Part shown: in pieces, positions 32,503-45,024 of the stretch | How the letters are laid out: each line of letters opens with the position of its first letter | How positions within the stretch are numbered: the stretch's first letter is position 1 | Source of the DNA: Nannocystis bainbridge | Lineage (GTDB): Bacteria; Myxococcota_A; Polyangia; Nannocystales; Nannocystaceae | Length of the DNA: 64,000 bases | Direction of reading: 5' to 3' | Assembly (NCBI RefSeq): GCF_028368995.1 | Contig: NZ_JAQNDL010000003.1 | Location: 192,001 to 256,000, forward strand | Made by a program: the position numbers and the translations under genes | The notes under the pieces: model-generated | Databases searched by the model: none | Told to the model about the DNA's origin: nothing | Seen by the model: only the letters and a program-made list of their open reading frames with translations

Positions 32503-34950
32503 ATGCACCTGCGACCTCTCCTTGGCATGATGATGATTTCGTGGTCCGGCGTCGGCCTGCTGGCCTGCGGCGACGACGGCGACGCCTCGACCACCGACGG
32601 CGCCGGCACCGATCCGACCGGCACCACCGCGACCGTCGGCGAACCGACCACGACGATACCGACCACGACGACGCCCACCACGGACGTCGAACCGACCACC
32701 GGTGACAGCGAGGGTGAGACCAGCTCGACGACCGACACCACGACCGGCGACCCGCCTGCGCTCGCCTGTCACGAGCTCCCGCTCCCGGCCGCGCTCGTCG
32801 AAGACGGCGCCTGGGACGACGACCTGACGATCTCCGGCTTCGCCGGCTACGACGGCCTCACCCCCAAGGTCTACGACTTCGCCCGCGACGCCGACGGCGA
32901 CCTGCTCGCCGTCGGCTACTTCCATTACATCGGCAAGGACAGCGTCCAGCCATTCGCGCGCCACGACGGCAGCGGGTGGATCGAAGACCCGGGCCTCGAC
33001 GTCGCGCTCGAGCGGCCCACGCTCTCGGCCGTCGCCGCCGACGACGGCGGTCGCGTCGCTCTCGCCACCTACTCGGCCCTCCCGTTCGACCTCATGCAGC
33101 GCGACGGCGAGCTGCTGCTGGCCGACGGCGGCGGCTTCGAGGTCATCGCCACCTTCAAGGGGGCGGTCCGCAGCATGGCGTGGTATGACGGCGAGCTGTG
33201 GGTCGCCGGCGTGTTCGCCCTCGACGGCGAGCCTGCCATGCCCCACCTCGCGGTGTACGACGGCGTCGACTGGCACGCCCCGCCGGGCGGCGCGCTGGTC
33301 GGCTTCGGCGCCTTCGAGCTCACCGTCGACGACGAGGTCCTGCTGGTCGGCGGCCGCTTCTCCAACGTCGGCGGCGTCGCGGCGCAATCGGTGGCCGCGT
33401 GGGACGGCGCCGCCTGGACCGCCTTCGACCTGCCCGACGCGACGGTGTACGCGCTGGCGCGCGACGGCCAGGGCGACCTCTACGCCGGCGGCCTGTTCTC
33501 GGTCGAGAACAGCGTCGAGACCGGCGGCATCGCCCGCTGGTCCGGCCAATCATGGCAGTCGGTCGCCGGTGGTCTCGCCAATCCGAGCTTCCGCGGGGTC
33601 GTCTCCGACCTGGCCGTTCGGTCAGGTGAGCTCCACGTCGCCGGCTGCTTCACCGCCGCCGGCGGCGTGCCCGACGATCCCGACGCCATCCCGGCGCCGG
33701 GCCTGGCGCGCTGGGCCGGCGGCGCCTGGGAGGCCCTCGCCGACCCCGCCAGCGGCGTCGGCACGGCGTGGTTCACCCCGCTCAAGTGCGGCGACGAGGG
33801 CCCCGACGCGCTGTGGGACGCCCAGCACCAGCGCCTGTTCGCCGCCGGCGATCGCCTGCTGCTCGGTGGTTCGTTCGCCGGCGTCGACGGCGTCCCGTCG
33901 CAGAGCGTCATCGAGCTCGACGCAGACGATCAATGGATCGCCCAGGGCGAGCCCGGCCGCGGCTTCTCCGGCTCCACCCGCTCGCTCGCCGTCGGCGGCC
34001 GCGAATGTGCGGTCCACGTCATGGGCGGCGTGACCCACGCCGGCGCGCTCGCGGTCGACAATCGCGTGCTGCGCAGCGACGGCGACGCCTGGGTCCCCGT
34101 CGGCCCGCCGATCCCCGCCGAGGCCTATTGTTGGCAGCTCGCGGTCGACGGCGCCGGCGTGCCCGCGCTCGGCTGCGACCTCCCGCCCGAGGGCGACCTC
34201 CCGCCCGAGGGCGGCGTCCTGCGCCTCGTCGACGATTCATGGCAGTTGTTCGGCGCCTCGTTCGTCCAGGGCGGCGTCGCCACCGTCGGCTTCGATCCGG
34301 CGGGCGCGCTGTGGGCCGCCGGCGGCGGCGGTGAGGGCTTCGTCGCCCGCGAGGACGGCAACGCGCTGATCACTCTCGGTACCAGCAATGGCCGGGTCGC
34401 CGCGCTCGCGTTCCGCACCACCCCCGCGGGCGAGCCGGTGCAGCTCGTCGTCGGCGGCTACTTCAGCGAATTCGAGGGCTTCCCGGCCGCCGGCGTGGCT
34501 CACTGGAACGGCGAAGTCTGGGAGCCGCTCGGCCCCGGCATCGTCGGCAGCGTGCTCGCCGTCGCCTACGCCGAGGACGGTGCCATCTATGCCAGCACCG
34601 CCGACGACGGCACCCCCGAACGGCCGATCCTGGCCCGCTGGGACGGCACTTCGTGGCTCGACGTCGCCACCCCCGAGCCCGGACCCGTCGACGCCGGCTA
34701 CGCCTTCTATTCGCTGCTGGCCCGCGGCCAATACGTGGTCGCGTCCGGCTTCGCCTGGCCCGGCTCCGAGCGGCGCAACGTCTTCGTCTACGACGGCACC
34801 AGCTTCGAGAGCCTGCGCGGCGGGGCCACGGCCATCTACGTCGAATCGTCGGCGCTGGCCGGCGACGGCCTGTGGTTCGGCGGCACGATCGCGGAGGCCG
34901 GCCCCCCCGAGGCTCGCGTCTCCTCGGTGGGGATCGCCCACCTCCGGTGA
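32503..34950 (+). CDS. Large beta-propeller repeat lipoprotein (Rax2/'GGxF...ARWDG..W' type)
   Basis: Lipobox LLAC; Thr linker; many LYAGGxF / ARWDGxxW repeats. Confidence 0.85.
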   Translation: MHLRPLLGMMMISWSGVGLLACGDDGDASTTDGAGTDPTGTTATVGEPTTTIPTTTTPTTDVEPTTGDSEGETSSTTDTTTGDPPALACHELPLPAALVEDGAWDDDLTISGFAGYDGLTPKVYDFARDADGDLLAVGYFHYIGKDSVQPFARHDGSGWIEDPGLDVALERPTLSAVAADDGGRVALATYSALPFDLMQRDGELLLADGGGFEVIATFKGAVRSMAWYDGELWVAGVFALDGEPAMPHLAVYDGVDWHAPPGGALVGFGAFELTVDDEVLLVGGRFSNVGGVAAQSVAAWDGAAWTAFDLPDATVYALARDGQGDLYAGGLFSVENSVETGGIARWSGQSWQSVAGGLANPSFRGVVSDLAVRSGELHVAGCFTAAGGVPDDPDAIPAPGLARWAGGAWEALADPASGVGTAWFTPLKCGDEGPDALWDAQHQRLFAAGDRLLLGGSFAGVDGVPSQSVIELDADDQWIAQGEPGRGFSGSTRSLAVGGRECAVHVMGGVTHAGALAVDNRVLRSDGDAWVPVGPPIPAEAYCWQLAVDGAGVPALGCDLPPEGDLPPEGGVLRLVDDSWQLFGASFVQGGVATVGFDPAGALWAAGGGGEGFVAREDGNALITLGTSNGRVAALAFRTTPAGEPVQLVVGGYFSEFEGFPAAGVAHWNGEVWEPLGPGIVGSVLAVAYAEDGAIYASTADDGTPERPILARWDGTSWLDVATPEPGPVDAGYAFYSLLARGQYVVASGFAWPGSERRNVFVYDGTSFESLRGGATAIYVESSALAGDGLWFGGTIAEAGPPEARVSSVGIAHLR

Positions 34951-35450
34951 TTGGCACGACAGCACCCACGTTCACGACGTCGCGTGCGTCTGGCGCGCCT
35001 CGTCGTCGACCGTCGCTGCCGGTTAAAAGGAACGTCGCCGACCACGCTCGCGCCCGGCACCGAGGCCCCGCACGCCGACGGCGTTCGCGCACCCTGCCCC
35101 ACCCCGGGGGCTCACCGGCGAATCGCCATACCCGACGGCCTTCCGGGGAAATAACCGTGTTCTCGCGACCCCGGGGCCCCTCCGATTCAGCGCGGTCGAG
35201 CCCTGTGACGTTGTCCGCGAAAATCCCGGCAGACCTTTTACGAGCCGCGGCGATTGCCCGCTCGAGCCGACTCCGCGACGATCCCGCCGGACCTCATGCC
35301 CCGGTGATTTCCCGCGTGGGCCCGGAGTCGCCGATATGGGAGCACGTCGCATCCGGGCCGTTCGCATCCGCCCGCTGCGCGATCGCGCAATGTTGCGCCG
35401 CTTCGCGGCTTCGGGGCATCATCCCGGGGTTCGATGGAGAGCGGCCGCGC

Positions 35451-36937
<1,487 letters not shown>

Positions 36938-36941
<4 letters not shown>

Positions 36942-37391: not shown

Positions 37392-39350
37392 ATGCACGAG
37401 CCGGTCGACGTGCTGATCGTGGACGACGACGAGGACGACTTCGTCCTCGCGCAAGACCTGATCGCCGACATCACGGCCAGCGAGTACCGGGTGCGGTGGA
37501 TCCAGTCCTACCAGGACGCCGTGCACGCGCTCCTGACCGCCGCGCCCGACGTCTGCCTGCTCGACTACCGGCTCGAGGCGCGCACCGGCATCGACCTGCT
37601 CCGCGAGGTCCGCGGGCTCGGCTGCGACGTCCCGATCATCTTCCTCACCGGGCAGACCGAGCGTGAGCTCGACGTCGAGGCGATGCACGCCGGCGCCGAC
37701 GATTTCCTGATCAAGGGCAGCTTCACCACCCGCGAGCTCGAGCGGGCCATCCGCTACGCCATCGAGCGCGCGGCCACCGGCGCCGCCCAGCGGCGGCTGA
37801 CCGAGGAGCTGCGGCTGATGCAGGTCCAGGCCCAGCGCTCGAGCCAGGCCAAGAGCACCTTCCTGGCCAACATGAGCCACGAGTTCCGCACCCCGCTGAA
37901 CGCCATCCTCGGCTACAGCGACATGTTGATCGATCAGGCGCGGGCCGGCGAGTTCGAGCAGATCGAGGACGACCTCAACCGGATCCGCGCCGCCGGCAAT
38001 CACTTGCTCGCGCTCGTCACCGACATCCTCGACCTCAGCCGCATCGAGGCCGGCCGGCTCAGCCTCGCGCCCGAGTCTTACACCCTCGGCGAGCTGCTGC
38101 GCGAGGTCGTCGACGCCGTCGCCCCGCTCATCCACCGCAACGGCAACCGCTTCGTCTACGCCCCCGCCGACGAGCTCGGCGAGATGGTCGCCGACGCCAC
38201 CCGCGCGCGCCAGATCCTCTTCAACCTGCTCAGCAACGCCGGCAAGTTCACGCGCAAGGGCCTCGTCTCGCTGGCCGTCACGCGCCGGCCCGCGCGGCTC
38301 AGCGACTTCAACCACCACGCCGGCGACCAGGCGATCGAGGGCGTCGATTGCGTCGATTTCGTGGTCGCCGACTCGGGCATCGGCATGACGCCCAAGCAGA
38401 TGGAGCGGCTGTTCGAGCCGTTCTCGCAGGTCGACGACACCGGCGGGCGCCGCTTCGGCGGCTCGGGCCTCGGGCTTGCGATCAGCCGCCGGCTCGCGCG
38501 GGCCATGGGCGGCGAGCTGCGGGCCCGCAGCGAGATGGGCCGCGGCTCCTCGTTTCGCCTGTCGCTGCCCTCGGACAGCACCGCCGCAGCGCGCTGGCGC
38601 GGCCTCACCCCCGAGCGGCAGTTCGCCACCGGCGAGCGCGGTCAGCTGCCGATCGTGTTCGTGCTCGGGCCGTCCGACGCGTTCGGTCGCCAGCTGCGCG
38701 ACCAATTGGCCGAGGTCCAGCTCGACATCGTCGTCGAGGCCGACCTGCGCCGCGGCGTCAAGTTGGCGCGCGCGCTCGGGCCCTCGCTGTTGGTGGTCGA
38801 GCTCAACGTCGGCTCGCCGGCCACCCTCGTCGCCCTCGGCCAGCTCGCGCGCGAGCCCAGCCTGCAGGAGGCCGACGTGTTGGTCTACCTGGTCGACGAG
38901 CCGGCCCAGTTCGGCTGCCTGCTCCACTGCGACGGGGTCGTCAGCGCCCCGCTGCAGGCGCTGCAGCTGCAGCGCCTCGTCGAGCGCCTGTCCCCGGGGA
39001 CATCTCAGCCGCTGCACCTGTGGTCAAACAGCGCCGGCCTGCTGCAGGAGGCCACCGAGATGATTCGCCACACCCGCCGGCTCGCGGCCGCCGGCGGAGG
39101 CCTCGATGCCAGCGAGCTGCACCTCGTGCACCTGGCCGCGCCGGGGGCCTCGTGGGGCCTCACCGCCGCCCGCCCCGACGCGGGCACCGGCGGGCCCGCG
39201 GTCGTGCTGGTCGCGCCCGACGACCCGCGCGCCGTCCCGCCGAGCTTCGCCGCCGAGATGCGCGCGCTCGTCGAGCAGACCGGCATCCCGCGCCAGGAGC
39301 TCGCGCGCGAGGTCAGCAGCGCGCTCGTGTCGCGCATGACCCGCGAGTGA
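37392..39350 (+). CDS. Hybrid receiver-histidine kinase with degenerate C-terminal receiver-like region
   Basis: N-terminal REC (IVDDDEDD, LLDY); AKSTFLANMSHEFRTPLN, NLLSNAGKFT, DSGIGM and GGSGLGL. Confidence 0.92.
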   Translation: MHEPVDVLIVDDDEDDFVLAQDLIADITASEYRVRWIQSYQDAVHALLTAAPDVCLLDYRLEARTGIDLLREVRGLGCDVPIIFLTGQTERELDVEAMHAGADDFLIKGSFTTRELERAIRYAIERAATGAAQRRLTEELRLMQVQAQRSSQAKSTFLANMSHEFRTPLNAILGYSDMLIDQARAGEFEQIEDDLNRIRAAGNHLLALVTDILDLSRIEAGRLSLAPESYTLGELLREVVDAVAPLIHRNGNRFVYAPADELGEMVADATRARQILFNLLSNAGKFTRKGLVSLAVTRRPARLSDFNHHAGDQAIEGVDCVDFVVADSGIGMTPKQMERLFEPFSQVDDTGGRRFGGSGLGLAISRRLARAMGGELRARSEMGRGSSFRLSLPSDSTAAARWRGLTPERQFATGERGQLPIVFVLGPSDAFGRQLRDQLAEVQLDIVVEADLRRGVKLARALGPSLLVVELNVGSPATLVALGQLAREPSLQEADVLVYLVDEPAQFGCLLHCDGVVSAPLQALQLQRLVERLSPGTSQPLHLWSNSAGLLQEATEMIRHTRRLAAAGGGLDASELHLVHLAAPGASWGLTAARPDAGTGGPAVVLVAPDDPRAVPPSFAAEMRALVEQTGIPRQELAREVSSALVSRMTRE

Positions 39351-39364
39351 CCCGCGAGGCACGC

Positions 39365-40351
39365 TCACAGCAGCGGCAGCCCCTTGTGCTTGACCGGCAG
39401 CTTCAGCAGCGCCGGCTTCGGCGTCCCGGGGAAGATGCCGTAATGGCGGGTGATGGCGAAGCTCGCCACGTACAGCGTCTTCTTGCTCGCGTGCGTCGCC
39501 CCGAACACCAGCGACGACGGCGCGTCGAGCAGCCCGCCCTCGGCGATGATGTCGATGTCGCCGTGCTTGTCGATCGCCACCAGCCGGTCCTGCCCGTTGA
39601 CCGCCACGAACAGCGTGCCCTTGTCGTCGAACGCGAGCCCGTCGGCCCCGGCCAGCGCGTCGTAGTCGTCGGCCCACACATCGATGTCGCCGGGTGAACC
39701 GTCGCACTCGACCTCGACGCGGAGGATCGTCCCGTAATCGAGGTTGCTGACGAACAGGTGGTTCTTGTGACGATCGAAGGCGATGCCGTCGACGCCGAAA
39801 TGCGAGAGCACCAGGTACGGATCGTCCTCGTTGCCCGCGAACGCAGCGTCCTGCAACCACACCTCGGGCGTGCCGTCCTCGTCGATCTTCCAGATCCGCG
39901 CGTGCAGCGGATCGGTCACGAACAGCCCGCCGTGGTCGTCGAACGCCAGATCGTTGGGGTAGCCGGTCGGGTCGAGGGTGGCGTGGGTCGTCACCCCGCC
40001 GTCGGGGTCGACGCGGAACACGAACGCGACCGGCGGCACCGGCGAGATGCTGCCGGTGGCGACAAAGAGGTCGCCGTCCTCGCCGAACTTGAGCCCCGCC
40101 GCCAGCACCCCCGGCGGCAGCGGCAGGGTCGCGAACACGCTCACGTGGCCCCAGGGGGTGATCCGCTTGATGTGGGCGCCCATGGACGCGTAGATGTTCC
40201 CGTCGGCATCCGTGGTGATCGACTCTGGCAATTCGCCGAGGCTCGGGTCGAACTTGGCGACTGTCGAAAGCTTGCCGCCCGCCGCCGCCACCCCCGGCGA
40301 GAGAGACATGAAAAGTCCTACGGACAATAAAACGAACAGGCTTCGACCCAT
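39365..40351 (-). CDS. Secreted SMP-30/gluconolactonase/LRE family protein
   Basis: Signal peptide; PESIT, PNDLAFD, VDGIAFD and ADGLAFD propeller blades. Confidence 0.88.
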   Translation of the reverse strand: MGRSLFVLLSVGLFMSLSPGVAAAGGKLSTVAKFDPSLGELPESITTDADGNIYASMGAHIKRITPWGHVSVFATLPLPPGVLAAGLKFGEDGDLFVATGSISPVPPVAFVFRVDPDGGVTTHATLDPTGYPNDLAFDDHGGLFVTDPLHARIWKIDEDGTPEVWLQDAAFAGNEDDPYLVLSHFGVDGIAFDRHKNHLFVSNLDYGTILRVEVECDGSPGDIDVWADDYDALAGADGLAFDDKGTLFVAVNGQDRLVAIDKHGDIDIIAEGGLLDAPSSLVFGATHASKKTLYVASFAITRHYGIFPGTPKPALLKLPVKHKGLPLL

Positions 40352-40535
40352 GACAAATCCCCCCATTGACGACCGGGCTTGTAGTGAAACAGTACGCTGT
40401 CAAGGATCAACAAGAACACCGTGAAGGACGCACTGCGATGATCGGTGGGCGCGACGGCGAGCGCGGCGACGACGCGCCACGGATTTCGCGAAAGGATAGT
40501 GGGTCGATCGGGTGCGGCTTGCTATCCTGGCGACG

Positions 40536-41924
40536 ATGACACGCTCTGGAATCGTCGCTCACCTGATGCGGCGCACCGCCCCCGGGCCGCGCGGCGGCCT
40601 CGTCCTCGGCAACCTCGCGGAGGTCGCCCAGGGCCGCATGTTCGAGCTCCTGCAGCATATGTGGCGGGCCCACGGCGACATCAGCTGCGCCCGGGTCGGC
40701 ACTCGACTGGTGTATCTCGTGGTCCACCCCGACCAGATCCAGCATGTGCTCGTGACGCGCCGGGAGAACTACACCAAGGCGTCGCACCGCGCCCGGCCGC
40801 TCATCGGCGACGGCCTGCCGGCCAGCAACGGCGAGCTGTGGGCCCGCCAGCGCAAGCTGCTGACCCCGCGGTTCCAGGTCGGCGCCCTGCCACAATTCGC
40901 CCCGCCGCTGCGCGGCGCCATGGAGCGCCAGCTCGGCCGCTGGCAGCAGGCGGCCGCCCGCGGCGACGAGCTCGACCTCGCCGACGAAATGATCGCCCTC
41001 ACCCTCGACGCGATCCTCGGCTCGCTGCTCGGCGAACGGCTCGACGACGAGGAGGCGCGGCTGCGCGCCGCCATCCGCGACGCCGTCGAGTTCGTCGCCG
41101 CCAGCAGCCAGCTGTTCCGCATCCCGCTGTCGTGGCCGACCCGGCGCAATCAACGTTTCCTGGCCGCCCTCGCGGTGATCGACGATTTCATCCTGCAGGC
41201 AATCGCGGCCCACCGGGACCGCCCCGCCGACGATCCTGACCTCCTCACATTCCTGCTCCGCCACGTCTCCGCCGATCCGCAAGCGCCCGACGCGGCGCGG
41301 CTGGTGCGCGACGAGGCGGTCAGCCTGCTGCTCGGCGGCCACGAATCGACCGCGCAGGCGCTGACATGGTTGCTTTATTGCCTCGACCTCCACCCGGAGG
41401 CCAGGGCGCGGGTGATGAGCGAGGTCGATACATTCGGCGACGCCCTGCCGACGGTCGCCGACCGCCAGCGCTTCCCGTTCCTCGCCGCCGCGGTGCAGGA
41501 GGCGCTGCGCCTGTACCCGCCGTTCTGGGCGTTCCCGCGCCACGTCGCCGCGGACGACGAGCTGGGCGGCTACCTCGTGCCCGCCGGCGCGACGGTGATG
41601 CTGTGCCCGTACCTCACGCACCGCCACCCGGCCCTGTGGGACGCGCCCGAGCGCTTCCAGCCCGAGCGCTTCCTCGGCGGCGTGGCCCAGGGCCGGGCGC
41701 GGGCCGCCTATCTGCCGTTCGGCTACGGCCCGCGGACCTGCATCGGCAACCACATGGCGACCACCGAGATCGTGCTGGCCACGGCGGCGATCCTGCGCCG
41801 CTTCACCGTCGAGCGCGTCCACCACGCCCCGGTCGCCCCGGAATTCTCGACGACCCTGCGACCGCGCGGCGGGATTCGCGTCAAGCTGACGTCCCGTCAG
41901 GGCGCCAGCGCCAGCTCCAGCTGA
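40536..41924 (+). CDS. Cytochrome P450
   Basis: GGHEST (I helix), EALR (ExxR), PERF and FGYGPRTCIG heme ligand. The start could alternatively be 40512 or 40566. Confidence 0.95.
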   Translation: MTRSGIVAHLMRRTAPGPRGGLVLGNLAEVAQGRMFELLQHMWRAHGDISCARVGTRLVYLVVHPDQIQHVLVTRRENYTKASHRARPLIGDGLPASNGELWARQRKLLTPRFQVGALPQFAPPLRGAMERQLGRWQQAAARGDELDLADEMIALTLDAILGSLLGERLDDEEARLRAAIRDAVEFVAASSQLFRIPLSWPTRRNQRFLAALAVIDDFILQAIAAHRDRPADDPDLLTFLLRHVSADPQAPDAARLVRDEAVSLLLGGHESTAQALTWLLYCLDLHPEARARVMSEVDTFGDALPTVADRQRFPFLAAAVQEALRLYPPFWAFPRHVAADDELGGYLVPAGATVMLCPYLTHRHPALWDAPERFQPERFLGGVAQGRARAAYLPFGYGPRTCIGNHMATTEIVLATAAILRRFTVERVHHAPVAPEFSTTLRPRGGIRVKLTSRQGASASSS

Positions 41925-42613
41925 TCGAGAACATTGATACGATCGACCTGTGGCCAATTGTTGCGTCGTGCGATTGCCGACAGGGGCGGCCCCGCCTCGA
42001 ACACCAGGGGCCGACCGACGGCGGCGAGCACCTCGCAGTCGCCGGGGCCATTGCCCAGCGCGAGCGACCGTGACAGCCCGGCGCCGCGGGCCGCCGCGAA
42101 TGTACGTAACAATGTCAACTTGCCCCCGCGCGCCCCGGGCATGCTGTAGCATTGACCAGTGTAGCGACCGGCGTCGACCGTGAATCGCGAACCATCACAG
42201 TCGGTTACGCCCAGGTCCGCGGCCAGCAGCGCGACGATCTCGTGGGGACTGGACGACACGATATAGGGAGTTACCCCGACCTGCTCGAGCCGCGCGATCA
42301 GCGGGCGCACGAAGGCGAACAATTCACCGCGCAGCCGCTGCCACGTCGCTCGCGCCAGAGCCTCCAGCGCGGCCTGCTCCGCGCCCGCCAGCGCCGCCGC
42401 GTAGGCCGCGGTGCTGCGGGTCACCATCTCCGGGAAATCGATGGATCCAGCCCGATGCTGGCCGACCGCGGTCATCACCGCCGCCATCGCGTCGGCCCGC
42501 CCGAGCCCGTAGCGGCCCATGTCGTCGAGCAGCGCGAGCCCGATCGACCGCGGGTGCATCGTACCGTCGACATCGAGGATCGCCACGCGCCCCGCGGGTT
42601 CGTCGTACGTCAT
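41897..42613 (-). CDS. HAD-superfamily (IB-like) phosphatase
   Basis: ILDVDGT motif I, IVSSS motif II, GK motif III and GNGPGD motif IV; 3' end overlaps the P450 3' end by 28 bp. Confidence 0.88.
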   Translation of the reverse strand: MTYDEPAGRVAILDVDGTMHPRSIGLALLDDMGRYGLGRADAMAAVMTAVGQHRAGSIDFPEMVTRSTAAYAAALAGAEQAALEALARATWQRLRGELFAFVRPLIARLEQVGVTPYIVSSSPHEIVALLAADLGVTDCDGSRFTVDAGRYTGQCYSMPGARGGKLTLLRTFAAARGAGLSRSLALGNGPGDCEVLAAVGRPLVFEAGPPLSAIARRNNWPQVDRINVLDQLELALAP

Positions 42614-42740
42614 GCCGCGATCATAGCGGAGCGGCGACGCATGCTCCAGACCCCAGACACGCGGGCCGCCGGATAATTCGTCGGTCCGCGCGATGGTCGT
42701 TGATCGTAACCAATAATTCGAGTAGCTCTGATCAAAGGTC

Positions 42741-44381
42741 ATGCTCACCGGAATTGGCGTGCTCGAACAGATCGAGCCGGCGCTAGAGCGCGCCGTGCAA
42801 TTCATGCTCGATCATCGCTTGCCCGACGGGCGCCTCGCGGCCGGCTGCGCCGGGCGGGCCCTGGAGAGCGCCCTGGCGTTGCACCTGCTGCGCACCTGCG
42901 GCCACGGGCCGGCGCTCCAGGCCGAGATCGCGGGCTTCTGCCGGCGCTGGCTGGCCGATGACGACGATGAGTCGAGTCATGCCAGTCGGCTCGACCGCAC
43001 GCTTTCGCGCATCCTCTGCGAGCTGGTGGTGCACGGCCGGCTCGGCGCCGAGGGCCTGGTCGCGCTCCAGCAGACCCTGGCCGCCTTCGATCACCCCACG
43101 CTTTGGCGCAAACGCGTGCTGGTCGAGGTGCTGCTGGTCGAACTCGGGGCACTCCCTCCGGGTCCGGCCGTGTTGCCGCTCGCGGTCGTGCGCGCCGAGT
43201 CCTCGCATCTGTGGGTGACGATCCTGCTGGCATCGATTCGCGTGCTCCAGCTGTGCCAGTCGGGCCGCGCCGACGAGGTCGGCGACGCCGAGCTGGCGCC
43301 GATCCTCGGCGCCCAGGCGACCGACGGCAGCTGGGAGCAGCACGTGCTCGTCACCATCGTCGCCCTGCTGGCGCTGACCCGCCTCGGCCGCGCCGCGCCG
43401 CACCGCGCCCTCGGCCTCAATTTCATCGCCGGCCAGCTGCGGCCCGGCGGCGGCGTCCCGTTCATCACCAACGAAGACGTCTGGGTCACCTGCCTCGCCG
43501 GGCTCGTGCTGACCGAGGCGCGGCGGCCCGCGCACGAGCTGCAGCGGTGCGAACAATTCCTCGTATCACAGCAGCAGCCCGACGGCGGCTGGGCCTACGC
43601 CGAGGGCGTGTCGCAGACCGACGCCGACGACACCAGCATCACCCTGTCGCTGCTGGTCCGCCGCAATCCGGTGATTCATCGTCCCAGCATCCGCCGCGCG
43701 GTCGCCCACCTGCTCGCGCTGCAGAACAGCGACGGCGGGTTCCCCACGTTCGTGCGCGGCGCCGCCTCCGAGGCCGAGATCACCGCCAAGTCGATCACCG
43801 CCCTGCGCGCCAGCCACATGGCCCCGCCCGGGGTCCTCGAGGCCGCGTGGGCCTGGCTGGCCCGCGCCCAGCAGGCCAACGGAGGCTTCCGCGGCGAGTG
43901 GAAGCTGTGCGCCACCTACCCCGCCTTTCACGTGATCAACGCCGCCGCCGGCGAGCGCCACGGCAGCCACGGCGCCGACATCCGTCGCCGCTGCGTCGGC
44001 TTCCTCCGCGGGCTCCGCCGGCCCGACGGCGGCTGGCCGATCCACCCCGACGACGACCGCAGCCACGTGCTCAGCACCGCCTACGCCCTCGGCGGCCTCG
44101 CGGCCTGCCCCGGCAGCCTCACGTCCGGCGAGCTCTACGCCTCGGCCCAGGTCCTGCTGGCCGGGCAGGGCCGCAGCGGCGGCTTCACGGCCGAGGCCGA
44201 CTCGCTCGGCCCGCGCCCCTTCGTCTACGACGTCCCGCTGCTCGCCACGCTCTACAGCGTGTGGGCGCTGTCCCGCGTCCGCGACCAATTGTCCGGGCGC
44301 GCGCACGAGGTCCCGTTCGGCGCGCTCGCACCGCGGCTCTCGCTCCTCAGCCACGACCGCGCCTGGATCTCCACCACCTGA
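42741..44381 (+). CDS. Class II terpene cyclase (beta-gamma), drimenyl-diphosphate-synthase-like
   Basis: DADDT (DxDD) motif; QW repeats (QQPDGGW, QNSDGGF, QQANGGF, RPDGGW); RALESALAL, FDH...RKR and GPRPFVYDVP. Confidence 0.88.
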   Translation: MLTGIGVLEQIEPALERAVQFMLDHRLPDGRLAAGCAGRALESALALHLLRTCGHGPALQAEIAGFCRRWLADDDDESSHASRLDRTLSRILCELVVHGRLGAEGLVALQQTLAAFDHPTLWRKRVLVEVLLVELGALPPGPAVLPLAVVRAESSHLWVTILLASIRVLQLCQSGRADEVGDAELAPILGAQATDGSWEQHVLVTIVALLALTRLGRAAPHRALGLNFIAGQLRPGGGVPFITNEDVWVTCLAGLVLTEARRPAHELQRCEQFLVSQQQPDGGWAYAEGVSQTDADDTSITLSLLVRRNPVIHRPSIRRAVAHLLALQNSDGGFPTFVRGAASEAEITAKSITALRASHMAPPGVLEAAWAWLARAQQANGGFRGEWKLCATYPAFHVINAAAGERHGSHGADIRRRCVGFLRGLRRPDGGWPIHPDDDRSHVLSTAYALGGLAACPGSLTSGELYASAQVLLAGQGRSGGFTAEADSLGPRPFVYDVPLLATLYSVWALSRVRDQLSGRAHEVPFGALAPRLSLLSHDRAWISTT

Positions 44382-44536
44382 GGCCAATGCTTACAGTCCC
44401 GCAATCGTGTGGGATCGCCCCGTACTGACATGAATTGTCCGTCATGCAGGCCCGCTCGCCGTCACGCGGCGATCGGCGGCGACGTCGTATGCTCGAGTTT
44501 CGCCGGGCGTGTGCCAGCTTGAGATCCTGCTTCTCA

Positions 44537-45024
44537 TGTCTTCGCTTCGCCGTGAGGGCGCGCTGTGGGTCGTCGCCGACGTTTTCGAGGCCGACCTGCT
44601 GCAGGTCCGCTCGGGCACCTCGGTCAAGCTGCGCTTCCCCGCCGACCCGGAGCCGATCGCCGGCCGCGTCGTCGGCGTCGGCGGGCTGGTCGACGTCGGC
44701 CAGCGCCGCGCCCCCGTCTACATCGCGCTCACCGACGAGGCCGTCGCCTCGCGCAACCTCACCCCCGGCATGTTCGTGCGCGCCGACATCACCGGCCCCG
44801 TCGGCGTCGGCGTCACGCTGCCCAAGCAGGCCGTCCTGATCAAGGACACCGACACCGCGACCGCCTACTTCGAGGTCGAGCCCGGCACCTTCGAGGCCCG
44901 CCACGTGGTCCTCGGCCACACCTCCGGCGACCACGCGCAGATCGTCTCCGGGGTGAACCCCGGCGAGCGCGTGGCCGTGGCCGGCGCGCTGCTGATCGGT
45001 CAGCAGCTGGCGTCCCGGCCCTGA
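44537..45024 (+). pseudogene. 5'-truncated efflux RND periplasmic adaptor (CzcB/CusB-like), C-terminal half only
   Basis: LWVVADVFEADL, LTPGMFVRA, LPKQAV, FEARHVVLG and IVSGVNPGERVAVAGALL; no signal/hairpin half and no RND pump gene nearby. Confidence 0.75.

Follow-up and report, generated by a model that had tools for sequence, protein, structure and literature searches.

A class II βγ terpene cyclase paired with a stand-alone HAD-IB phosphatase in a proposed three-gene terpenoid cassette of Nannocystis

Introduction

How do bacteria free the products of their class II terpene cyclases? Enzymes of this type leave the diphosphate on the product, and a pathway built on them consequently needs a removal step. 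Two bacterial routes for this step have been published: a Nudix enzyme encoded beside a cyclase of β and γ domains (βγ) in Streptomyces, and, in marine Bacteroidota, a β-only cyclase that carries a haloacid dehalogenase (HAD) domain in the same chain. A stretch of 64,000 nucleotides from Nannocystis bainbridge, here called the window, raises the question of whether there is a further route, as it carries a βγ class II cyclase gene next to genes for a stand-alone HAD phosphatase and a cytochrome P450. An earlier interpretation of the same DNA, the sequence-only reading, had proposed that these genes encode a split and tailored drimane pathway. We consider it moderately probable that the three genes form a terpenoid cassette yielding an oxidised bicyclic, drimane-type terpene alcohol, and our findings indicate that the pairing of this type of HAD with this type of cyclase extends well beyond Nannocystis.

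Results

The core of the locus consists of three genes and one spacer.

40536-41924, plus strand: P450, 462 aa; start ATG at 40536, stop at 41924, alternative in-frame GTG at 40512
41897-42613, minus strand: HAD phosphatase, 238 aa; start ATG at 42613, end of the open reading frame (ORF) at 41897
42614-42740, no strand: spacer between the divergent HAD and cyclase genes, 127 bp
42741-44381, plus strand: class II βγ cyclase, 546 aa; start ATG at 42741

The P450 and HAD genes converge and overlap at their tails by 28 bp (41897-41924). The ATG at 42613 is M65 of a mechanically called ORF of 302 aa; the resulting start, MTYDEP, is that of three other Nannocystis species, and the longer ORF is disfavoured because a related locus (L003) has a 1-nt indel just 5' of the HAD start. 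Judged by composition, the three ORFs are real genes: the GC content at third codon positions (GC3) is 0.92 for the P450, 0.82 for the HAD and 0.93 for the cyclase, compared with an overall GC content of about 0.71 in this window from a Nannocystis species. When the ORFs were read again, the coordinates, the 28-bp overlap, the 127-bp divergence, the DADDT motif and the length of 546 aa given by the sequence-only reading were all correct, and the six sequence blocks that it had quoted for the cyclase were found in the protein. Its mention of QW repeats is loosely true, in that a regular expression retrieves six Q..G(G/S)(W/F) strings, only two of which end in W.

To which family does the cyclase belong? 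It is a class II (protonation-type) βγ terpene cyclase of the family of the Streptomyces drimenyl diphosphate synthase SsDMS, also named 'DMS-2'. Pfam assigns it SQHop_cyclase_N/C and Prenyltrans domains above their cut-offs. When it was compared by phmmer with all chains of the Protein Data Bank (PDB), the only strong matches were SsDMS entries, with E-values from 5.7e-61 (7XQ4) to 1.4e-58 over residues 28-511; the next match was human lanosterol synthase at 1.7e-07, and no chain of a squalene-hopene cyclase (SHC), of PtmT2 or of another bacterial diterpene cyclase appeared at E<=0.01. The SsDMS blocks given by the sequence-only reading agree with the alignment to 7XQ4 (CESRVLESALAL, FDHFTAGRKR, RPDGGMPFI, GVAQSDVDDT, NPDGGFPTFARGTSSE and GPRPLLYDVP). 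Against the NCBIfam model hopene_cyclase the protein scores 52 bits, with a cut-off of 431. Its AlphaFold2 (AF2) model (pLDDT 91.5) is a βγ didomain α/α-barrel, and a Foldseek comparison fits it better to SsDMS than to SHC or to diterpene cyclases (template modelling scores, TM-scores, by query and by target, TMq/TMt).

SsDMS, 7XR7: TMq/TMt 0.83/0.92, root-mean-square deviation 2.4 Å
SHC: TMq/TMt 0.73/0.65
Rv3377c: TMq/TMt 0.61/0.68
Tpn2: TMq/TMt 0.62/0.69
PtmT2: TMq/TMt 0.58/0.61
AsDMS, 9M7F: TMq/TMt 0.36/0.39

Thus phmmer, Foldseek and a tree that includes the SsDMS-like cyclase of locus L040 (see below) bear out the earlier placement of the cyclase beside SsDMS rather than SHC or PtmT2-type cyclases. 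An identity as SHC or as PtmT2-type diterpene cyclase is ruled out by the phmmer search, the NCBIfam score and the lower TM-scores.

The family assignment can be followed to single residues. The DADD(T) motif lies at residues 294-298 (DADD at 294-297), with D296 aligned to the general acid of SsDMS. For the latter enzyme, one report names D303 as the general acid, R132 and K133 of the γ domain and R501 of the β domain as binding the diphosphate, and E169 of the γ domain as a Mg2+ ligand (PMC12232559). Chain index and native numbering differ by 9, and mapping with this offset gives the following correspondence.

SsDMS D303, general acid: window D296
SsDMS R132, diphosphate binding: window R123
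SsDMS K133, diphosphate binding: window K124
SsDMS R501, diphosphate binding: window R492
SsDMS F248, mutated in the 8ZG entries: window F241
SsDMS Y505, mutated in the 8ZG entries: window Y496
SsDMS E169, Mg2+ ligand: window L162, not conserved

According to their titles, PDB entries 8ZG0, 8ZG1 and 8ZG5 are the SsDMS point mutants F248A, F248Y and Y505I. The Mg2+-ligand site varies within the cyclase family. Over the 76 rows of our site table, from which L049 was left out for its very long branch, the position of E169 holds Gln 42 times, Thr 11 times, Ile nine times, and Leu and Glu six times each, the Glu occurring in L040 and in rows from Nostocales.

Might the cyclase nevertheless act on squalene, a prenylated aromatic or another substrate free of diphosphate, in the manner of SHC or MstE, so that the three genes would not constitute one pathway? 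The domain names given by Pfam are SQHop_cyclase only, and MstE-type enzymes figure as the nearest monodomain relatives in a preprint (PMC12324236). We regard this explanation as most improbable, given that all three diphosphate-binding residues of SsDMS are conserved in the window cyclase, that by TM-score the model fits SHC and MstE far less well than SsDMS, and that a phosphatase partner would be left without a role.

What kind of phosphatase is encoded beside the cyclase? Sequence and model place the 238-aa protein as a stand-alone phosphatase of the HAD superfamily, subfamily IB, which is SerB-like and has a C1 cap. It matches Pfam PF12710 (3.2e-16), and all of its NCBIfam matches stay under their cut-offs, including TIGR01490 (3.6e-18) and serB (24.8, cut-off 144). 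The four HAD motifs can be read as DVDGT (I), the Ser of SSSP (II), the Lys of GGK (III) and GNGPGD (IV). In all 21 HAD orthologues motif I reads DxDGT, and the Ser of motif II, the Lys of motif III and the closing Asp of motif IV are unchanged. Motif IV opens with Asn in Nannocystis, L006-L009 and L025, and with Asp in the remaining orthologues; in SerB-type enzymes this first Asp binds Mg2+. The AF2 model (pLDDT 94.7) has a Rossmann-like core with C1-cap helices (24-111) between strand 1 and strand 2. Its best Foldseek matches are Mycobacterium avium SerB2 (5IT0), the uncharacterised Bordetella protein 3FVV and the Methanocaldococcus jannaschii phosphoserine phosphatase MjPSP (1F5S), with TMq 0.65-0.77. 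These proteins share the fold, the C1 cap and motifs I-III with the window HAD, whereas identity is only 17-26%, motif IV starts with Asn in the window protein, and its genomic partner is a terpene cyclase. The HAD domains of the fused enzymes AsDMS and AstC are absent from its 50 best structural matches, which led us to reject the idea that it corresponds to the AsDMS HAD domain in detached form.

Is the neighbourhood of HAD and cyclase more than an accident of one genome? One genome per species was scanned for cyclase relatives; at least 572 were found, and the best 80 loci were retained. An orthologue of the HAD (33-87% identity, in-frame tblastn with the window HAD) lies beside the cyclase in 21 of these 80. 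The HAD-linked loci belong to Nannocystis (L001-L004), to metagenome-assembled genomes (MAGs) of Nannocystaceae or Myxococcales (L005-L009), to Archangium (L015, L020, L033, L059, L065), to Enhygromyxa salina (L018, L035), to Nostoc, Scytonema and other Nostocaceae (L016, L022, L024, L029) and to an actinomycete MAG of the Pseudonocardiaceae (L025). The arrangement differs between them: the genes are divergent in Nannocystaceae, the HAD gene is upstream with a 4-bp overlap in Enhygromyxa L018, and it lies 16 bp downstream in Nostoc L016. Synteny elsewhere, the absence of which would have spoken against the sequence-only reading, is therefore present for HAD and cyclase in three phyla, and for the full trio in nine Nannocystaceae loci and, with homologous parts, in the one actinomycete MAG. 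The computational checks that this reading had suggested thus all turned out in favour of it.

The two genes also share a history. The HAD tree separates Nannocystis and the MAGs (nine rows, support 98) from the other 12 rows (support 98), and the same deep split, with Archangium, Enhygromyxa, Nostocales and L025 on the far side, is found in the cyclase tree; Enhygromyxa, which is assigned to Nannocystaceae by the National Center for Biotechnology Information (NCBI), is placed with Archangium and cyanobacteria in both. Pairwise identities of HADs and cyclases correlate with r = 0.96 (210 non-independent pairs). The link is thus a strong one, and the pair behaves as one evolutionary unit. A complex prediction for HAD and cyclase, based on a 21-row alignment of each, speaks neither for nor against binding (score 0.00, mark 0.32).

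Consistent with such a unit, the two protein types occur in one chain. Among longer relatives of the HAD we found a 747-aa protein of Saccharothrix syringae (P0124) that combines PF12710 with SQHop_cyclase domains. A HMMER search with this protein, of which the 150 best representatives were listed, added three full-length fusions among the matches listed, from Nonomuraea (P0126, 755 aa), Kitasatospora (P0129, 741 aa) and a metagenome (P0128, 791 aa). All four (741-791 aa) have an N-terminal HAD-IB and a C-terminal βγ cyclase and are annotated at source merely as 'haloacid dehalogenase-like hydrolase'. P0129 shares 34% identity with the window HAD over 224 aa, ungapped, and 34% with the window cyclase over 498 aa. 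The acid motif reads DVDD in P0129 and P0128, DTDS in P0126 and DAGD in P0124. Two shorter entries likewise begin with the HAD: P0127 (573 aa) extends well into the cyclase part, and P0130 (403 aa) passes the junction, with the HAD alone confirmed by Pfam. Because the same HAD and cyclase types are fused in actinomycetes, the two window proteins would be expected to act together.

These findings bear on the possibility that the HAD is a housekeeping or otherwise unrelated phosphatase, for example of the phosphoserine type, and that the diphosphate stays on the cyclase product for use in a prenyl transfer or a class I reaction by an enzyme encoded at another locus. The closest solved relatives of the HAD are indeed SerB phosphoserine phosphatases, its NCBIfam matches are all below cut-off, and its GC3 is lower than the 0.92-0.93 of its neighbours. 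Yet the linkage holds in three phyla and three arrangements, both trees show the same deep split, the fusions combine a HAD and a cyclase of these very types, and identity to SerB is low. We therefore judge an unrelated phosphatase to be very unlikely. From pairing and fusion we propose that the window HAD is a prenyl diphosphate phosphatase.

A Nudix box was found in only two of the 80 loci, L040 and L060, in both directly 5' of the cyclase and confirmed as PF00293; the six frames of the window contain none. Because the L040 cyclase matches SsDMS (7XQ4) at E 1e-212, we used L040 as a stand-in for the published Nudix-type cluster. The contrast with Streptomyces drawn by the sequence-only reading is upheld by this locus, which has a Nudix gene where the window cluster has the HAD.

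The third gene encodes a cytochrome P450 (Pfam p450, 3.8e-77, 260 bits) with the I-helix acid-alcohol pair in GGHEST at 267, EALR at 322 and the heme loop FGYGPRTCIG at 395. Of the NCBIfam models, two for sesquiterpene oxidases come nearest to it, albaflavenone monooxygenase (2e-57) and pentalenene oxygenase (5.5e-53), both far under their cut-offs, and its nearest solved structures are 7WZL, a 'putative P450', and CYP170A1 (3DBG). Identity within Nannocystaceae is 53-93%. Over all loci, the best matches outside this group are those of L040 (41% over 407 aa, E 4e-74), L025 (36%) and L060 (35%), and in a tree of 18 rows precisely these three join eight Nannocystaceae P450s in an 11-row clade (SH-aLRT, a likelihood ratio branch test, 94) that leaves the cyanobacterial and the other actinomycete P450s outside. 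Sequence thus points to a homologous module of cyclase and P450, which is accompanied by Nudix in L040 and L060 and by the HAD in Nannocystaceae and L025. We propose that the window P450 is the tailoring oxidase of the terpene alcohol.

How close is the cyclase to enzymes with an established substrate? Within Nannocystis it is 89-90% identical to the cyclases of N. exedens DSM 71, Nannocystis sp. RBIL2 and N. punicea. In a tree of 77 rows (quick IQ-TREE with SH-aLRT only, rooted at the midpoint, no characterised SHC or diterpene cyclase as outgroup) it falls together with L040 into a 34-row clade (SH-aLRT 99) composed of two subclades. Subclade A (12 rows, support 100) holds the window cyclase, the Nannocystaceae and two loci of actinomycetes whose neighbours include P450s. 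In subclade B (22 rows, support 95), the Nudix-type L040 and L060 are joined by L025, which is HAD-linked, by a group of 11 further HAD-linked rows from Enhygromyxa, Nostocales and Archangium, and by L014, L019, L048, L061 and L043, which adjoin genes for polyprenyl synthases, class I synthases or both. The remainder of the tree is actinomycete and mostly linked to class I synthases. The window cyclase is thus best described, by sequence, as a close cousin of SsDMS without demonstrated orthology.

Neighbouring genes were called with a crude GC3-based caller and clustered, and cluster representatives were searched with Pfam; L004, L056, L066 and L080, in which no cyclase gene was called, are absent from this clustering and from the tree. 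Among the neighbours, the following recurred: a class I terpene synthase (a cluster of 20, all from actinomycetes), P450s (clusters of 17 and 8), the PF12710 HAD (16), a Methyltransf_19 protein (7, Nocardia) and an SGL β-propeller (6).

Several SsDMS-family loci have a context of their own. A polyprenyl synthase and a class I synthase lie beside the cyclase in L014, L048, L061 and L013, which together with L019 come from Streptomyces, Promicromonospora and Nocardia; L019 has the polyprenyl synthase without a class I synthase, and LytB adjoins its cyclase. LytB (L019) and DXS (L021) are both recurrent neighbours in the family. It is accordingly possible that some 'DMS-2' enzymes serve longer-chain pathways or pathways of two steps, class II and then class I. 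Furthermore, nine cyclase homologues of 760-1850 aa (P0136-P0138, P0148, P0153, P0155, P0160, P0168 and P0188) carry N-terminal extensions of 120-600 residues, and DDxxD-like strings at the start of some of them suggest fused class I synthase domains.

Could the cassette then follow the same logic with another chain length or scaffold? The cyclase might accept geranylgeranyl diphosphate (GGPP) or another prenyl diphosphate, or fold farnesyl diphosphate (FPP) into something other than a drimane, and the HAD would release an alcohol of labdane or other type for the P450 to oxidise. The distance to SsDMS and the missing E169 are compatible with this, as are the polyprenyl and class I synthase genes beside relatives in the sister subclade. 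Genes of the methylerythritol phosphate (MEP) pathway are the usual context of diterpenoid clusters, and LytB and DXS belong to it. Only two family members are reported as characterised, SsDMS and CavC (PMC11035983). Both of these characterised relatives, on the other hand, use FPP. SsDMS and 'homologs from other bacteria' make up the 'DMS-2' group of the preprint cited above, in which all characterised GGPP-using class II cyclases belong to another major clade (PMC12324236); such enzymes match the window cyclase far worse. A prenyl synthase is absent from the window and the 21 HAD-linked loci, and the P450 is closest to those of Nudix- or SsDMS-type loci. On balance, a different chain length or scaffold appears rather unlikely to us.

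Where would the precursor and the electrons come from? Searches of the 64 kb by tblastn with one polyprenyl and two class I synthase queries from related loci returned nothing, and the 38 window ORFs scanned with Pfam, which derive from GC3-filtered calls only, include no polyprenyl synthase, ferredoxin or ferredoxin reductase. The earlier statement that no prenyl synthase or redox partner lies in the window thus mostly holds. Nor did tblastn detect a polyprenyl or class I synthase in any of the 21 HAD-linked loci, which fits the use of a housekeeping precursor.

With respect to expression, the spacer at 42614-42740 is presumed to be a shared promoter or operator region of HAD and cyclase. A 161-bp stretch containing it is 92% identical across four Nannocystis species, approximately the level of coding DNA, and an AT-rich block near 42692-42734 is invariant among them. 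No sigma-70 consensus match was found in the spacer, and a scan of 39200-44700 gave one promoter-like site, which lies inside the β-propeller gene described next, and no terminator.

One further gene flanks the P450.

39365-40366, minus strand: SMP-30/gluconolactonase-like β-propeller (SGL), 333 aa; Pfam SGL 3e-18

Homologues (tblastn, 33-86%) occur within 8 kb of the cyclase in nine of the ten Nannocystaceae-type loci L001-L010; none was found in the 3.9-kb L010, and the weakest is that of L003 (54% over 84 aa). The gene lies 5' of the P450 in L001-L005 and directly 3' of the cyclase in L006-L009. Its N-terminus resembles, by eye, a signal peptide. The SGL protein may be a fourth member of the cassette, confined to Nannocystaceae and active outside the cytoplasm.

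Further 5' of the P450, both on the plus strand, are a PAS histidine kinase (34653-36941) and a hybrid kinase/response regulator (37392-39350). Both lie next to the P450 in L001-L007 and L009, with flips of orientation, and the upstream flank of L008 is short; kinase identity is 40-46% in L005-L007 and L009. It is possible that the two kinases regulate the cassette, or that they are an inherited neighbourhood only. On the other side of the cassette, 44509-45024 on the plus strand encodes what is left of a HlyD-type membrane-fusion protein (171 aa); at this position L002 has an intact gene of 445 aa, L003 gives tblastn matches and L001 has a truncated form. In L004 (Nannocystis pusilla Na p29), the kinase, P450, HAD, cyclase and a helix-turn-helix (HTH) protein between 2000 and 12400 each fall into several tblastn pieces, which points to many frameshifts, more probably from assembly errors than from decay of the cluster.

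Discussion

How might the three proteins work together? We envision that the cyclase binds a linear prenyl diphosphate, which from family membership would most likely be FPP drawn from primary metabolism, and that D296 of the DADD motif protonates the terminal double bond. The chain would fold into a bicyclic product with the diphosphate still attached, for which drimenyl diphosphate or an isomer differing in the double bond is the likeliest candidate. The HAD-IB protein, using the Asp nucleophile in DVDGT, would then strip the diphosphate and leave the free alcohol, as suggested by the conserved pairing of the genes, by the fusion proteins and by catalytic motifs that are intact. Finally, the P450 would oxidise the alcohol with the help of a redox partner encoded elsewhere. 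We hold the general order of class II cyclisation, dephosphorylation by the HAD and oxidation by the P450 to be quite likely; to the more specific assignment of FPP as substrate and a drimane-type product, which follows from sequence comparison, we lean with less assurance.

A number of observations weigh against this reading. The window cyclase is only 32-37% identical to SsDMS or to the L040 enzyme, and its subclade of 12 rows is sister to, and hence outside, the one with the SsDMS-like L040. The residues that it shares with SsDMS are invariant in 74-76 of the 76 family rows and therefore mark the family rather than a substrate or a product, and at the position of E169 each of the nine full-length rows of the Nannocystaceae type has Leu or Ile. 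The 34-row clade is in itself probably not uniform in substrate or fate of the product but mixed in function, because loci of the sister subclade (L014, L019, L048, L061) have polyprenyl or class I synthase neighbours. The HAD has an Asn in place of the first Asp of motif IV, as have three of the four fusion proteins, and its closest characterised relatives are phosphoserine phosphatases of 17-26% identity. Among the fusions, P0124 with its DAGD motif is without the catalytic Asp, which is kept in the other three. Finally, the papers searched contain no product from these organisms.

Which known system resembles the cassette most? In Streptomyces clavuligerus, the cav cluster encodes the drimenyl diphosphate synthase CavC, the Nudix enzyme CavB and the P450 CavA, which yield 2- and 3-hydroxydrimenol (PMC11035983). 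The window cyclase has the same βγ fold as SsDMS (Streptomyces showdoensis, 7XQ4/7XR7) and belongs to the same family, with its DxDD acid and diphosphate-binding residues; the logic of cyclising with the diphosphate kept, dephosphorylating and oxidising would be the same, and the P450 is homologous (41% to the stand-in L040). The differences lie in the phosphatase, Nudix there and HAD-IB here, in the cyclase, which is of low identity, sits in a sister subclade and has Leu in place of E169, and in the host phylum, Myxococcota. By analogy, the scheme is most likely the cav pathway with the phosphatase exchanged.

The fused HAD-TCβ enzymes, AsDMS of Aquimarina and the fungal DrtB, AstC and AncC, similarly couple a phosphatase of the HAD fold to class II cyclisation, with the same proposed net reaction from FPP to a drimane alcohol. 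These, however, are single polypeptides of an N-terminal HAD and a β-only cyclase, whereas the window has two genes on opposite strands, a βγ cyclase and a SerB-like HAD of subfamily IB. The window HAD and cyclase are a convergent, independent recruitment and not the split halves of a fused HAD-TCβ enzyme. Of the pathway put forward by the sequence-only reading, the family, the gene linkage and the contrast with Nudix clusters have stood; its word 'split', taken as kinship to the fused marine and fungal enzymes, has not, given their β-only cyclases and HADs outside the 50 best matches.

A precedent for a stand-alone HAD, which the sequence-only reading had overlooked, is the astellolide pathway of Aspergillus oryzae. 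There AstI and then AstK, both stand-alone HADs, dephosphorylate the drimanyl diphosphate (PMC5024094). As in the window, stand-alone HADs are encoded beside the cyclase and P450s tailor the product; there, however, two HADs serve AstC, itself a HAD-like β cyclase, as against one HAD and a βγ cyclase here (AstI and AstK were compared by description). The fungal pathway uses its two HADs in succession (PMC5024094); the single HAD of the window may remove one phosphate or both.

What, then, is new? In the full-text literature searched, which lacks most subscription journals, we came across no report that pairs a βγ DMS-type cyclase with a HAD-IB, be it as a separate protein or as part of a fusion. 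Nor did we find studies of drimanes in myxobacteria or cyanobacteria, although a prior mention is possible. The sequence-only reading, which knew of no split and tailored drimane pathway from myxobacteria, had missed that the pair reaches well beyond them, for example to Nostocales and actinomycetes. Judging from sequence, the HAD-IB/βγ unit is distributed over Nannocystaceae, Archangium, Enhygromyxa, Nostocales and actinomycetes, and appears in some actinomycetes as a three-domain enzyme with an N-terminal HAD. We see an even prospect that βγ cyclase and dedicated SerB-like HAD-IB constitute an undescribed, widespread two-protein unit, a third and independently evolved route of diphosphate removal beside Nudix enzymes and HAD-β fusions, and that in Nannocystaceae this unit feeds a P450 to make oxidised terpenoids, of drimane type or of a new scaffold, that are unknown from myxobacteria.

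If this holds true, known enzymology would be extended and not overturned. The pairing would provide a simple rule for finding terpene-alcohol clusters in genomes and a set of phosphatases and P450s for drimane-type biocatalysis, and it would offer a first handle on the class II sesquiterpenoid chemistry of myxobacteria and Nostocales.

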